A DNA stretch of 64,000 nucleotides. Source: a phage. Below, piece by piece: positions 32,818-60,610 of this stretch (the stretch's first letter is position 1; every line of letters starts with the position of its first letter). The translations under genes and the position numbers were made by a program. The stretch lies in sequence record PZ445446.1; one strand, given 5' to 3'. The notes beneath the pieces were generated by a model that saw only the letters and a program-made list of their open reading frames with translations, was not told where the DNA came from and did no database searches.

Positions 32818-32844
32818 GCCCTGCCCGAAAGGGTGGGGCTTTTT
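32818..32844 (+). terminator. intrinsic terminator (GAAA tetraloop), copy 1
   Basis: gccctgcccGAAAgggtggggc + TTTTT; same 22-nt hairpin recurs at 42964. Confidence 0.65.
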
Positions 32845-32862
32845 GCATTAGGAGACAGCAAA

Positions 32863-33627
32863 TTGAAATTTATCTACAAAGAACACTACCACAAAGGTGT
32901 TGTGTGGAGCCTATTTGACGGATCTGGTGGTGCAGTCATTGACTGGGCAAAAGCTGGATATCTGTGCCTGTGCTTTAACGCAAAAGGTGCTGACCACGGC
33001 AGTTATGCAGAGGTGATCACCGATCATCCAAATATTCACTATGTAGATTATTGGATTGATCCATGGTTCCCTCAGGAAACTTTCTGCATGTACCCAGCTC
33101 CGGACTTTGTTCTTGCATTTCCTCCGTGCACCCACTTAGCGGTGTCAGGTGCTGCACACTTTAAGAAGAAGCTGGCTAAGGACCCGTTGATCCAGATTAA
33201 TGCTGTAAAGGATGCTCGGGTTGCAGAAGAGTTGGGAGAGATTTACGATTGCCCGTGGCATGTAGAGAATCCTGTGGGTGTTATGTCCACACTGTGGCGC
33301 AAACCTGATTACCGTTTTCACCCTTCTGACTATGGCGGGTATTTACCGGAGGATGATGTAAACCCCTGGTTTCCTGAATTTATAGCTCCACGTGATGCCT
33401 ATCCAAAAATAACTTGCGGCTGGATAGGTAATGGATTTATAATCCCGGCCACAAAACCTGTCCCGCAAATAGTTGACGCGGTTAGCGGGTATTCCATGCA
33501 ACACGCCAAGCTGGGTGGAAAGAGTGCAAGAACGAAGATGATCCGAAGCCTCACACCACGTGGCTGGGCAAAAGCCGTATTCTTAGCAAACGAGCCTGTA
33601 GTAAGGAGCAGAATTAATGGGAAGTAA
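32863..33627 (+). CDS. DNA cytosine-5 methyltransferase-like protein
   Basis: Motif I LFDGSGGAVIDWAKAG, PC motif FPPCTHLAVSG, ENV-like HVENPVG; TTG start after AGGAGA chosen because track GTG 32833 lies inside the upstream terminator. Confidence 0.45.
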   Translation: MKFIYKEHYHKGVVWSLFDGSGGAVIDWAKAGYLCLCFNAKGADHGSYAEVITDHPNIHYVDYWIDPWFPQETFCMYPAPDFVLAFPPCTHLAVSGAAHFKKKLAKDPLIQINAVKDARVAEELGEIYDCPWHVENPVGVMSTLWRKPDYRFHPSDYGGYLPEDDVNPWFPEFIAPRDAYPKITCGWIGNGFIIPATKPVPQIVDAVSGYSMQHAKLGGKSARTKMIRSLTPRGWAKAVFLANEPVVRSRINGK

Positions 33628-46160: not shown

Positions 46161-46489
46161 CAGAGATCATCGTTTCAACTGCAGGGTATGTATTCCTGAC
46201 AATCATTGCGTTGGCTATTCTGGTGGCGGTGTATGGATTTGTTATCCTGCCTATTCTTGAGACATTTAGCTTGTGTCGGTGTTGGAGAAAAGCTTACGGA
46301 CCACAACCGTGGAAAGACTGGTTTCATTTGGTGCGTATAGCGTTCTCTTATGCCTATGATCACTCCAGCAGTGCATGCGTAACCGGGTACCATGCCTACA
46401 ACTGGAACTGGGAAGGGCTTGGGAGATGGACTGTTACAAAAACTATACCCTTACGGTTGTATAAAGGAAAGAACACACTGGGAGCCTGA
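46157..46489 (+). CDS. membrane protein
   Basis: 110 aa; N-terminal hydrophobic helices (YVFLTIIALAILVAVYGFVILPIL). Confidence 0.45.
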   Translation: MTEIIVSTAGYVFLTIIALAILVAVYGFVILPILETFSLCRCWRKAYGPQPWKDWFHLVRIAFSYAYDHSSSACVTGYHAYNWNWEGLGRWTVTKTIPLRLYKGKNTLGA

Positions 46490-46799
46490 TATTTTAAGTT
46501 ATCAGATTGCCAGAGATCAGGAGGATTTCTAAAATGGATTTCCTCCTTTTGATATTTTACCTACCAGGATATTTTAAAATCCTTAGAAAATCAGAAAATG
46601 GATCGAAAACTAAAATGGATTTTTCAGAGCAGGCACGACGAGATGAACCACTCATCCTATCGTCTGCACCATATTCCAGACCACCATTACAGATTTCCCG
46701 CACATGCTCACACCCTTCTACTAGAACTTCCCCCACTTACCCTTGACCTTTTATAGTAATAATCCAACCACTACCTTGAAGTTGTGGCGCAGCTTTCCA

Positions 46800-46887
46800 A
46801 GTACTCGATCTGTTTTTCGTTTCAAAGATTGAATTTTCTGAAAATTTTTCTCGATAAATTTCTCAGTACTCGATCTGTTTTTCGTTT
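46800..46887. repeat. 23-bp perfect direct repeat pair (agtactcgatctgtttttcgttt)
   Basis: Copies at 46800-46822 and 46865-46887; partial third copy near 46947-46963. Confidence 0.65.
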
Positions 46888-47090
46888 TCTGAATCGGATT
46901 TTCTGGAAATCGTTCCGGCTCTCGACCTGAAATTTTTGGGGACGAAATCGATTTTTCGTTTTCAGAAATGGATTTTTAAAATTTCTATATGGGAATATTT
47001 TAGTGGATACTATTTTATAGGAAATTGTTACGGAGGATAATTAGCGTGCTAATTAAATTTATTAAATGCGAGGAGTTCTCATTTAGAATT

Positions 47091-47109
47091 TTGAATGATA
47101 ATCATTCTC
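47091..47109. promoter_or_regulatory. Fur-box-like operator (15 of 19 to GATAATGATAATCATTATC)
   Basis: ttgaatgataatcattctc; overlaps candidate -10 hexamers. Confidence 0.5.
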
Positions 47110-47122
47110 GTTTGCAGAATAA

Positions 47123-47165
47123 CGGGCAGGCCCGGTGATTGTCTCCCGGCCCCTACTGCCCCGGC
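47123..47165. repeat. GC-rich structured repeat, copy 1 (core CCGGTGATTGTCTCCC)
   Basis: Follows Fur box A; flanking GGGCAG/CTGCCC can pair around core. Confidence 0.5.
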
Positions 47166-47226
47166 TTGTTATTATAGTAACACACAGGACAAAGAAAGCA
47201 AGAAGTTTTTGCATAAATTTTTAGAC

Positions 47227-47245
47227 GATAATGATAATCGTTCTC
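47227..47245. promoter_or_regulatory. Fur-box-like operator (17 of 19 to consensus)
   Basis: gataatgataatcgttctc; preceded by TTGCAT about 17 nt upstream, so box overlaps a candidate -10. Confidence 0.55.
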
Positions 47246-47254
47246 ATTTCATGC

Positions 47255-47300
47255 AGCGCCCATCCCCGGTGGTTGTCTCCCCCGTCACCGGTGCCTGCCG
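47255..47300. repeat. GC-rich structured repeat, copy 2 (core CCGGTGGTTGTCTCCC)
   Basis: Follows Fur box B; CCGGTG/CACCGG stem. Confidence 0.5.
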
Positions 47301-47509
47301 TCCTTTCGATAGGTATATTTTGCCACCTGGCGGGGCCGCTGTCAACACTTTTCAAAAAAAAAAAAAATTCTAACCTGATGCGCTGACCGCTGCAACCTGG
47401 CGGGGCCAGCCTGGCAGGGCCTAACTGACCAGGTAGGAGAGAATGAAGGCTTGCAAACCTGGTGGGCCTATGCTATAGGATAGGTAACAATTGAAGAGGA
47501 GGTACAAAA

Positions 47510-47647
47510 ATGGAAGGTAATATGATCCCCCTGGTTGAAAAGGCTATGGCGGGAGCGTTGGAACATAAAGAAGAGTACGAAAAAATGATGGTTAACCTGG
47601 CAGGGGCGGCGGCTGGAGAATTCTACCCAAAAAATAATTTTAACTAA
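47510..47647 (+). CDS. hypothetical small protein (45 aa)
   Basis: ATG 7 nt after GAAGAGGAGG RBS; first gene after the 1-kb noncoding region; absent from track. Confidence 0.35.
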   Translation: MEGNMIPLVEKAMAGALEHKEEYEKMMVNLAGAAAGEFYPKNNFN

Positions 47648-47650
47648 TGG

Positions 47651-47679
47651 TTGACAGCTCGGACAGTTCTTGTTATTCT
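47651..47679 (+). promoter_or_regulatory. sigma70-type promoter TTGACA-N17-TATTCT
   Basis: Just after stop of 47510-47647, upstream of 47733. Confidence 0.5.
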
Positions 47680-54486: not shown

Positions 54487-54540
54487 ACCTGGTGGGGCCG
54501 AAAAGGCCCCAATTATGAAAATAAAGAGAGGTAAATCATC

Positions 54541-57586: not shown

Positions 57587-58200
57587 TGCTCTTCTCCTAC
57601 CATAAACGGCCCTACCTGGCAAGTGGAATAATTGACTAGCCATCAATCCCACATACTGTACAAATATACATGGAAAATAACTATTGCATAATTTTTCATT
57701 GTGTGGTAGCAAGTCCATTTTTACCCGTTTTCTCTCCCAAAAGTGCACGTAATGCCGCTATTGCACAAATTTTAACCTGATGCACATCTCCAATATCTTG
57801 TCAACAACTAAAAATCTTTATAAGTCATACACTTACACAGCATCGAAAGCGTGTTCTACGCGAAAAATCGAGTATAACTATAGCCGCCAGATCTCAGAAT
57901 TCACGTACGCACGCCATTCTATAGCCTGCAAAGTATTTATTCCAACCACAGAATAACGGAATAGTCAATACCTGCATAAAATAATTATTCGTGTAAACTG
58001 CATAACATAAATCAGCTCAGGTGTCAACATTTTTCGTAAACAGTCCGAAATTATCACGATGAGCTATCATAAACAGAGAAATATTTAGTCGTCTAATGTT
58101 TACTGTACATTACTATACTGACTGGAATCATTAGATGACTAAGAGAAAGATAAGAAATAATTAATAATGTAATTATTTTACCTGTAACAATAAGGCAACT

Positions 58201-58494
58201 ATGCAAACGAATGGCATGGCGCGACGGAGTCGCGACATAATATAAAAGCAGTAACCATCACCCCCGTGATAGTTTGTCTGCAAACTATTAATCAGATCAT
58301 AGTTGCCTTGTATTTAGTTAATCATGACATAACAAGCAAGGCAACTATAGATCTTCTAATAGTTGCCCTGCTTTTATATTATGTCATAGGAACGCCCGAA
58401 GGGGTGACCTAGTCACCTGGTATAGCCAGCGAAAGATTATTAACTTGTCGATTGTTATCTTGTTAATTGTTTTCATGCAAACGAATGGCATGGC
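58201..58494. repeat. 20-bp direct repeat pair (atgcaaacgaatggcatggc)
   Basis: Copies at 58201-58220 and 58475-58494. Confidence 0.6.
58234..58387. repeat. 18-bp perfect inverted repeat pair (gacataatataaaagcag / ctgcttttatattatgtc)
   Basis: Arms at 58234-58251 and 58370-58387. Confidence 0.6.
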
Positions 58495-60060
58495 TTATCA
58501 TCTATGCGTGAACAGTGAGGCATGCAATAGTAACAATTGTTATTGTATCCAGTGTGTTGAGTATGCCCAGTGTGTCACTATTATGTCATATTATGTCACA
58601 GTATGTCAGACAAGTTTTCCTCCTCTTTGTCAAGTGCTGCATGAAAAATTTACAAGCTTGTATGGTAGCATTTTTGCGGCCCTGTTTACATTCAGTGTTG
58701 TATGTATAATCCTTGTTGTGTGGGCGTTTAGACGTCTGGACGGTCAGAAGTTTGCAGGTCAATATCTAATCTATTGGCTGCTAACTATATCCCCCACAAA
58801 TAATAAGAAATATAATTGTTATGTGCGTAAACAGTAACCCATGTTATCAATCCCTGTATGTATCGCCAGTGGTGCGCATAATGGGTATTATGTTAAATTG
58901 CCCGTAATGATAACAGTTCTCACAATGATAGGTATTCTCATTCATCCACACAAAATAGGTTGCAAATGTTGTGCCACTGTGTGAACGGCCTGGCCTATTA
59001 ATTTCTCTCACTGCCTCGATATTTGAGAATTGTTATAAGAATGAGAAGTATTCCCATTCCGTCCGCCTGGCAGCACTCCAGTAGCTACCGGCTCCTGACA
59101 GGGCAGCACTCCTGTAGGTCAGGTCAAAATCGTGGTAGAATTGGGCCTGTTCAGATATTTCTGACTGACTCTTCAGATCTGTGTGGGAAAAGCCAACCTC
59201 TCCGGAGGGGCAGGGGAGGTCAATTAAAAAATTTACGTGGTGTATGAAGCGCTCTTCAGGTAAGGCATGTATTATGGGATGAAACCCTCTTCAGGCAATG
59301 ATATTTGTGGGTGTGATATTTGCTGGAAAGCCAGATATGACGGGACTCCCGGCGGGGATGGGGTAGTACAGACAGGGAAAATATGGGGATGTAGTTGGGT
59401 AAATTGATCAGACAGGTAGAGTATGGAATATGTTACAAGTATGTTAAATAGGGAGGATGAATATCTGCAGGATTTGTGTGTAAAATCAAAGACTTAAGTG
59501 GTGTTGTGGTATTTTCTATAAATAATTCAAGTTTAATAGGTAATATTTGTCTCTATCCACTTTGTGTGGTAAACAGATTCAGATGAAATTGGTTTACAAG
59601 TGTATACATAATATACAAATTAAAGATACAAGAAACCCCCCTCCCCCTTCGGCTACCATTCACCTTTTCCTCTGACTGGTACTTAAACACTTATTCAGAC
59701 TCTTCAGGTTATCACCCATATATCATATGGCAGTGACTGGTGTCCTCCGGCCCCTCTTTCGTCACCCGTCCGCTTCGCCATGCTAATGCCATAGCCAATG
59801 GTTCGGTTGTTCACTCTGTTCACTCAGGTGTATCTCCATACCCCTTCAAACCGAAGAGAACAGAAAACCCGAATTACTCGGTAAAAGAAAAGAGAAGAAC
59901 TTAATTTTATCAGGATAGGCAAGAATGTCAAGGCATGACTGCTCACTAAACAAGCAAACAGTCATGTGTGGAAGGTAAGTGATTGTGGTGGTGGGAAATT
60001 TAGTTGAAAGATGTGTTATAGGTGCGCTTCCAGCACTTTGGCCGGGCAGCTAATTGTGTG

Positions 60061-60276
60061 TCAGTCCAGCGGTTCATCCTCTACTTCACTGAAATCAATG
60101 TTCATGGTCTCCTCCCAACCATCGATCTCAGCACAAGAGTGGAGTTCTTTAGGGTTTACTCCCAAAGCCTCAGCAACAGAGTCTATATTTAACACCTCTG
60201 GCAGGTATGATTCATCGAATTCAAGGTAAATCAGGCCACGAGTGTTGTCAGCTCCACCAAATATCTCTATCTTCAT
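60061..60276 (-). CDS. small acidic protein
   Basis: 71 aa, Asp/Glu-rich; last gene of leftward array. Confidence 0.45.
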   Translation of the reverse strand: MKIEIFGGADNTRGLIYLEFDESYLPEVLNIDSVAEALGVNPKELHSCAEIDGWEETMNIDFSEVEDEPLD

Positions 60277-60397
60277 GAAATCTCCTCTGGAAATGAGAGT
60301 GTGAACAGGGTTTTATACGTTCTAATGCACAGGAATTATACACGTTTGCCTCTTCAGGCCATGCTTTAGCATGAGGAACCTGTGTGGGCTCGGTGCT

Positions 60398-60610
60398 TCA
60401 TAGTCTACCACCTCTGAACTCTTCGTGCTCAGGCATAATAGAGAACCAGATATCTACGATGTCCTCCCACGTCAGGTCATCAGCCTCAGGATCTGTCTGG
60501 GACGAAGATGAAGAGTCCTCAGAATCTAAGTTTTCCTCTTTAACTGGCTCATCCAAGGGACATATGGTCACTCCTTCGGATGTCTCTTCAGATGCATGTG
60601 TGTTGATCAT
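60398..60610 (-). CDS. small acidic Ser-rich protein
   Basis: 70 aa; poly-Ser and D/E-rich. Confidence 0.45.
   Translation of the reverse strand: MINTHASEETSEGVTICPLDEPVKEENLDSEDSSSSSQTDPEADDLTWEDIVDIWFSIMPEHEEFRGGRL

Follow-up and report, generated by a model that had tools for sequence, protein, structure and literature searches.

A repeated GC-rich motif beside a conserved non-coding region of an rV5-like phage coincides with the spacer of a predicted leftward promoter

Several copies of a short GC-rich motif lie directly upstream of a small gene in a phage DNA stretch of 64,000 nucleotides (sequence record PZ445446.1, here called the window), and this arrangement raises the question of whether the copies are promoter elements, binding sites for a regulator or something else. 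Between positions 46400 and 48400 the window shares 99.7% identity with Escherichia phage MaxBurger, and 121 phage records match this section, nearly all of which are Vequintavirus (rV5-like) coliphages. The genes on either side of the motif region are small early ORFs on the plus strand. A gap of about 1 kb (46490-47509) has no credible genes, and the motif cluster is located at its right end. On the genome map of rV5 an ORF-free box is labelled 'non-coding' (PMC3606486). A first-pass annotation of the window had described the motif as triplicated and had proposed either three stacked promoters that share one spacer operator or three binding sites for a single factor, directly upstream of the ORF at 47510-47647. 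In the promoter version, three rightward sigma-70 promoters, each with TTGC(A/C)A and the motif as spacer, would feed this ORF.

We found that the repetition is real and goes far beyond chance. Two exact 13-mers ACCTGGCGGGGCC are located at the positions reported in the annotation, 47325-47337 (copy 1) and 47395-47407 (copy 2), and they are identical at 13 of 13 nucleotides. The third reported element, ACCTGGTGGGCC, which has one G fewer, is also present (copy 4), but its range was one base off and reads 47457-47468 instead of 47456-47468. The count of three was wrong since two further copies were detected. Copy 3 (GCCTGGCAGGGCC, 47409-47421) had been overlooked and copy 5 (ACCTGGCAGGGGC, 47595-47607) is located within the small ORF, where it corresponds to the codons N-L-A-G-A. 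Thus, four plus-strand copies precede the small ORF and one resides inside it. Three copies carry a TGC(A/C)A prefix, and the flanking hexamers TTGCCA (47320-47325), TGCAAC (47391-47396) and TTGCAA (47451-47456) are as previously described. The copies are direct repeats without dyad symmetry and their spacings are 14, 48 and 70 bp.

Quantification of the enrichment indicated that CCTGGYRGGG occurs six times in the window when 0.51 occurrences are expected, and none of 100 shuffled sequences reached this number. For the 13-mer with up to two mismatches, five matches compare with 0.63 expected. When the genome-wide motif search proposed in the annotation was carried out with the complete 136-kb genome of MaxBurger, we obtained seven matches, all on a single strand, and four of them belong to the cluster. 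The extended unit TGCMA(N)CCTGG is present four times in the whole MaxBurger genome and three of these sites are at the cluster. A scan of IMG/VR with the 16-mer AATGAKAATCATTCTC returned at least 120 contigs, which were mostly unrelated, and since this count is roughly at chance level for a collection of such size, the scan was uninformative. Away from the cluster (window 54487-54510; MaxBurger 88734 and 89222), the motif directly follows stop codons and forms one half of small hairpins, for instance ACCTGGTGGGGCC-GAAAA-GGCCCC, which is not followed by a U-run.

As sigma-70 criteria we used hexamers 16-18 bp apart, a score of at least 9/12, A at -11 and T at -7. A lenient sigma-70 scan did not detect any plus-strand site at 47320-47480. 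In a second scan, the best rightward candidate at copy 1 (TTGCCA-18-AACACT) did not exceed 8/12 and no rightward -10 hexamer was found at copy 2. A weak rightward promoter candidate for the small ORF (TTGCAA-17-TATAGG, 47451-47479, plus strand), which the lenient scan did not list, has copy 4 as the first 12 nt of its spacer; it scores 8/12 and lacks T at -7. JEP1, magaca and slur12 carry an alternative -10 hexamer (TATAAA) without a -35 hexamer. TTGCCA and TTGCAA match the -35 consensus at five of six positions, and copy 4 offers a 17-bp spacer and TATAGG, all of which would fit the proposal of three promoters. However, none of the copies has a rightward site that the scan accepts, and 8/12 was the best score. 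TTGCCA at copy 1 is accounted for by a leftward promoter (P_L, see below), whose TG-extended -10 element it complements, and relatives do not keep the proposed layout: 49% of the aligned ones have no copy 3, and the -35 hexamer of the copy 4 candidate is deleted in FV3. The sequence therefore largely refutes three stacked rightward promoters, and we give this proposal hardly any credence. That the motif is connected with a promoter spacer was correct for copy 1 and may be so for copy 4, but direction and number had been wrong. Among other elements considered, a sigma-54 promoter (TGGCAC-N5-TTGCA) was rejected by inspection of either strand, as the spacing was off by 2 nt or the -12 element was missing. 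An intrinsic terminator at 47320-47480 was rejected as well (none in the scan, no significant fold, z = -0.75), and of the Chi sequence (GCTGGTGG) copy 4 holds only CCTGGTGG.

The predicted sigma-70-type promoter P_L is located on the minus strand at 47317-47345. It consists of TTGACA (47345-47340), a 17-nt spacer GCGGCCCCGCCAGGTGG (47323-47339) and CAAAAT (47322-47317) with a TG extension, and both scans gave a score of 10/12 plus this extension. Motif copy 1 forms the middle of the spacer. The A/T-rich stretch upstream of P_L (47346-47367), which on the minus strand reads T14 followed by GAAAAGTG, is similar to an UP element and to the GTGTTGACA context of early promoters in rV5. A second leftward candidate, which is weak (TTGCAG-17-TAGAAT, 47367-47395, minus strand, 8/12 in the window), has a TTGCAA version scoring 9/12 in ECP26, JEP1 and NHEP1 and is not kept in all relatives. 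Its -35 hexamer is complementary to the TGCAAC that precedes copy 2.

In the promoter table of rV5 (PMC3606486, Table S4), the early promoters share the GTGTTGACA context. Its entries P195A and P195 correspond to the window promoters at 47651 and 47933, there is no entry at the motif and P_L is absent from the published lists. For Certrevirus, the early-promoter consensus AAAA-N3-4-TGTTGAC-N17-TATAAT has been reported (PMC7344957). We found no published transcriptome in the literature that covers the locus in any rV5-like phage. With its GTGTTGACA context, its 17-bp spacer, its extended -10 element and its A/T-rich upstream stretch, P_L looks like the sigma-70 early promoters of rV5-like phages. 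Unlike the published ones, it is directed against the genes and into non-coding DNA, and its spacer is unusually GC-rich with fragments that are repeated nearby.

P_L was recovered at 10-11/12 in all 14 Vequintavirus genomes examined. Furthermore, a leftward promoter scoring 9-11/12 was present at the homologous position in 15 of 15 distinct sequences from other genera (Phapecoctavirus, Certrevirus, Seunavirus, Mydovirus and one Serratia phage). For this comparison, we used the equivalent regions of phAPEC8, phiTE, CR3, SSE121, KpS8 and Serratia phage Kashira plus relatives from IMG/VR, and a gap of about 1 kb was found at the equivalent place in all of them. The spacer varies in sequence between genera, its G+C content is always 71-94% and it is partly palindromic in several genera. 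The Mydovirus spacer ACGGCCCCGGCCTGGGT is recognisably the same motif as the spacer of the window. Taken together, the conservation of P_L and of its GC-rich spacer across genera indicates that copy 1 is an old, conserved promoter spacer. In an alignment of 13 Vequintavirus genomes, conservation was 97-100% and gap-free from 47091 to the -35 element of P_L. In the Klebsiella phage KpS8, a 12-mer of its own P_L spacer (CCAGGCCGGGGC) is repeated without a mismatch at a distance of 276 bp to the right, and this second occurrence lies within a paralogous leftward promoter-like module that precedes a small leftward ORF. This repeat supports local duplication of pieces of the P_L module, and it would equally fit a motif that is recognised by some factor. 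A small leftward ORF separates the leftward promoter from the first rightward gene in KpS8, phiTE and Kashira (L022:1527-1790; L018:1560-1790, minus strand). In phAPEC8 an unannotated small leftward ORF is located at the same place and in Vequintavirus there is none.

To the right of P_L, identity in the 13-genome alignment is 85-92% and gaps reach 49%. Apart from copy 3, the stretch between copies 3 and 4 is frequently lost (missing in 42% of the aligned relatives), and the number of motif copies per genome varies between 3 and 5. Conservation of copy 2 is 97% vs 91% for its left flank, and this difference is the best argument that the copies may have some function. Six indels end in the repeats: those of FV3, Alma, typing phage 14, ECP26 and phiWec196 and that of the window itself (CCCTGG). 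In FV3, the end of copy 2 is joined to copy 4, and in Alma copies 2 and 3 are fused. The deletion of ECP26 has one end at the GGGG of copy 2 and the other at the copy 4 GGG, and it places the TTGCAA of copy 2 at a distance of 16 bp from the -10 hexamer of copy 4, so that the candidate promoter is rebuilt. In typing phage 14 the deletion follows immediately after copy 3, and in phiWec196 it extends from copy 4 to the in-ORF copy 5, with the consequence that most of the small gene is gone. These alignments document what appears to be a repeat-driven indel hotspot, which can remove an early gene.

Deletion hotspots at short direct repeats (microhomology) are a known phenomenon to which this stretch compares. 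Another comparable case is the pseudo-ToxI locus of phiTE, for which repeat expansion and contraction by strand slippage has been described (Blower et al. 2012, PMC3475682). Both loci are composed of non-coding repeats in an rV5-like phage, the copy number varies between isolates and indel endpoints fall in the repeats. Unlike the tandem 36-nt units of pseudo-ToxI, the motif copies are dispersed repeats of 12-18 nt, and there is no mimicry of an RNA antitoxin at the motif cluster. Identity of the two loci was rejected, as the escape locus of phiTE is at 106.7 kb and the motif locus at 39.6 kb.

The small early ORF downstream of the cluster (47510-47647, plus strand) encodes 45 amino acids, is preceded by a strong ribosome binding site (GAGGAGG, 47497-47503) and matches phrog_21957 (E = 1e-21). 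Compared with MaxBurger, the ORF has lost 39 nt in frame, and the deletion is flanked by two CCCTGG repeats within it. In the divergent relative L002, the C-terminal protein sequence is kept through synonymous changes, which marks the ORF as a real gene; motif copy 5 is missing from this relative. Among 14 relatives, six have an impaired version (only 10-13 codons in four, ATG lost in one, deleted in one), and thus the gene is dispensable. Domain searches with the seven flanking ORFs returned only PHROGs of unknown function and neither Pfam nor DNA-binding domains, and an IMG/VR homologue search with the 132-aa neighbour yielded one locus only. No tRNA or tmRNA was found within the window. A 92-aa ORF at 47095-47373, which is open in 13 of 15 genomes, was rejected as a gene. 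It has no ribosome binding site, it is broken in Alma and L002 and its changes relative to FFH2 are mostly non-synonymous (about 5 vs 2 synonymous), and for these reasons it is probably non-coding. The annotations of MaxBurger, FFH2, FV3 and JEP1 list it as a hypothetical protein, and ORF annotation within the gap of about 1 kb differs widely between annotators.

The block that P_L would transcribe (47040-47316) is near-invariant and contains Fur-box-like palindromes, a hairpin (47124-47162) and an inverted repeat. The latter is a 14/15-nt inverted repeat (GGCAGGCCCGGTGA at 47125-47138, TCACCGGTGCCTGCC at 47285-47299) and encloses about 145 nt. For a minus-strand RNA of this block (about 47312-47100), we calculated a fold z-score of -3.65, which was better than 200 of 200 shuffles and is driven by the inverted repeat. 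The plus strand of the block gave a z-score of -0.68 and is not distinctive. The two dyad-symmetric Fur-box-like sites at 47091-47109 and 47227-47245 match the Fur box at 15/19 positions (by inspection) and at 17/19 positions (0.02 expected per window). They come close to the consensus of the E. coli Fur box (GATAATGATAATCATTATC; 7-1-7 TGATAATnATTATCA) and share its dyad symmetry. In related genera, by contrast, the sites have the sequence AATGAGAATCATTCTCATT, which differs by a symmetric T>G change, and they are arrayed every 29 bp. Either Fur or a regulator of the phage might bind such palindromes. Dyad-symmetric 19-mers of the form AATGA(T/G)AATCATTCTCATT were counted seven times in the window (0.16 expected), including 47091-47112 and 47227-47248, and other genera carry arrays of two to four at 29-bp spacing (L018:1154-1261, L020:1108-1226, L022:1205-1256). 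More of them are located at 58906-58942 and 59040-59058 in a second unannotated region near 59 kb. This region (about 58060-60570) comprises about 2.5 kb that are unannotated in MaxBurger (92785-95298), and gene blocks of the plus and minus strand converge there. Among its features are a direct repeat of 20 nt without mismatches (58201/58475), an equally perfect inverted repeat of 18 nt (58234/58368) and, at 59931-59904, a site that resembles a strong leftward promoter (11/12).

The left part of the non-coding gap is characterised by three iteron-like tandem repeats of about 65-74 bp (46791-46976) with the core GTACTCGATCTGTTTTTCGTTT. The core also appears as (G)TNCTCGATC-N-TTTTTC, with exact 22-mers at 46801 and 46866. 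Vequintavirus shares this architecture with CR3, SSE121, phiTE and Kashira, and in the Certrevirus, Seunavirus and Serratia phage architecture the repeats were located at L020:901-1081, L021:944-1152 and L023:926-1174. Over all these sequences, repeat lengths are 63-78 bp. TTTCTAAAATGGATTT has four occurrences between 46526 and 46975. Downstream of the leftward promoter, the sequences of the other genera share a block with GTTAGCCCCGCCTTTNCGCCGTGGGGTGGCG (L022:1350-1455; homologous in L018-L023 and L144-L155). A 31-nt stretch is invariant in all non-Vequintavirus sequences retrieved, and it was this very pattern that had been used for retrieval. On the minus strand, the block carries a GTAAA-N5-GTAAA repeat, which resembles a CpxR box. 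A Shine-Dalgarno-like GGAAGGTGG is shared as well. Vequintavirus does not have the GTTAGCCCCGCCTTTNCGCCGTGGGGTGGCG block, and the second palindrome and the hairpin are found in its place. Consensus folding of the P_L-transcribed block of the other genera gave a weak structure (-20.8 kcal/mol) with one covarying pair (AU:7, GC:7) and most paired columns were invariant. The Rfam 15 covariance models did not match the region, the whole window or six distant loci. A host origin of the region was rejected, as there were no matches in 5,426 E. coli genomes.

The explanation that we consider slightly better supported than an even chance is that the locus contains one conserved leftward early promoter, not three promoters, and that its GC-rich spacer spawned partial copies in an unstable stretch. 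The motif would be the spacer of P_L, a strong-looking early promoter for the host sigma-70 RNA polymerase, which would fire leftward, opposite to the neighbouring genes, into the conserved non-coding region of about 1 kb. It is predicted to yield a structured RNA about 195 nt long. The remaining copies may represent paralogous fragments of the spacer and -10-proximal module of P_L (minus strand GGCCCCRCCAGGT-N-GCA), which are spread across the 190 bp that separate P_L from the first small gene, and a further one is located within this gene. They would not function as independent promoters, and copy 4 would at most be part of a weak rightward one. As short direct repeats, the copies demonstrably serve as breakpoints of recurrent deletions and fusions, leading to length polymorphism and to the occasional loss of the small ORF. 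From the positions and the enrichment of the copies, the conservation of P_L and of its GC-rich spacer, and the indel endpoints, all of which are observations, we infer that P_L is active, that the extra copies came from duplication or slippage and that they are dispensable. Two findings count against fragments: copy 2 is better conserved than its flanks and copies 1 and 2 are identical, both of which would also fit a functional site. Moreover, the similarity from which a duplication is deduced spans only 12-18 nt, and the sequences around the copies share no homology.

The copies might instead be operators for one DNA-binding factor of phage or host, which would occupy the spacers of P_L and of the rightward promoter of the first gene and co-regulate the divergent pair with copies 2-3 as auxiliary sites. 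We regard this as unlikely, and yet several findings speak for it. Copy 1 in the spacer of P_L and copy 4 in that of the rightward candidate both overlap core promoters, the conservation of copy 2 above its flanks would be expected for a binding site, and the spacer motif of KpS8 is likewise present twice. L002 has another rightward promoter (TTGCGC-17-TATAAA) with CCCTGGGG as part of its spacer, and phAPEC8 has CACCTGGTAG in a rightward spacer. The arrangement resembles the OR/OL operator arrays of lambda, where a short repeat overlaps core elements of a divergent pair and extra copies lie in between. Unlike in lambda, the repeats are direct, their number (3-5 copies) and spacing are not conserved and no cognate repressor was found among the flanking ORFs, in which the domain searches detected no DNA-binding domain. 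Copies 3-4 are lost in many viable relatives, the motif is located at opposite spacer ends in the two promoters and other early promoters do not carry it. Modulation of P_L or neighbouring promoters by a Dcm-type methylation cluster, in which only the CCWGG core of the motif matters, appears distinctly improbable. There are seven CCWGG sites in 47320-47610 (291 bp; 0.61 expected, P = 4e-6), but this enrichment follows automatically from repetition of the motif. The phage encodes a Dcm-like C5 methyltransferase (window 32833-33627). CCWGG is present in the spacer of P_L in Vequintavirus, Mydovirus, Seunavirus and Phapecoctavirus, whereas CR3 and Kashira have none there; phiTE has neither the methylase nor a spacer CCWGG. 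CCTGG>CCTAG changes in copy 2 of FFH2 (L003) and in copy 3 of phiWec196 (L009) look like deamination of 5-methylcytosine at Dcm sites. No E. coli protein is known to recognise CCWGG with C5 methylation at promoters.

Origins that combine a promoter with an unwinding element are known from T4 oriF/oriG and ColE1 RNA II, and lambda ori is an iteron origin. The motif copies could belong to such a replication origin if the non-template G-clusters, downstream of rightward promoters or adjacent to P_L, stabilised an R-loop or marked the transition from primer to DNA beside the iterons and the A-tract, and we consider this improbable. Across genera the gap looks origin-like, with three iterons of about 65 bp, two to four regularly spaced 19-bp palindromes, an A14 tract and a strong-looking promoter directed into non-coding DNA. 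A strong-looking promoter into conserved non-coding DNA, repeat arrays and an A-tract are common to the known systems and to our locus. The candidate origin differs from them in that copies 3-4 of the motif are dispensable in relatives. At the equivalent place of other genera there is no G-cluster array, and the published skew analysis of rV5 did not point to this region (PMC3606486). Finally, the repeats might act in RNA, where they could give the small-ORF mRNA a structured 5' leader or be bound by a protein. All copies share the orientation of this mRNA, and elsewhere the motif forms one half of intergenic hairpins. However, the leader (47380-47515) folds no better than shuffled sequences (z = -0.75), large deletions in relatives remove most candidate pairings and there is no Rfam match. 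We regard a role in RNA as very unlikely.

If P_L with its fragmented spacer copies is the correct reading of the locus, its value is first of all corrective, since the apparent triple promoter comes down to one predicted promoter that faces the opposite direction plus unstable paralogous fragments. The indel hotspot lies in a phage genus that is used for therapy and biocontrol. A more speculative picture, which we think is improbable, would have a factor that recognises the motif copies, or a methylation-sensitive switch, couple P_L to the first rightward early promoter. The P_L product would then be a conserved early non-coding RNA, either regulatory or a replication primer, and the gap of about 1 kb with its iterons and Fur-box-like palindromes would be a control or origin region of rV5-like phages, on which the iron status of the host might act. 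Of greater interest than the motif cluster itself is the adjacent conserved non-coding region. At least six genera have a non-coding architecture in common, which comprises iterons, palindrome arrays, a strong-looking leftward early promoter and an obligatorily GC-rich spacer, and this region is a concrete candidate for harbouring the replication origin, which is unmapped in this large phage group, or the gene of an early regulatory RNA.
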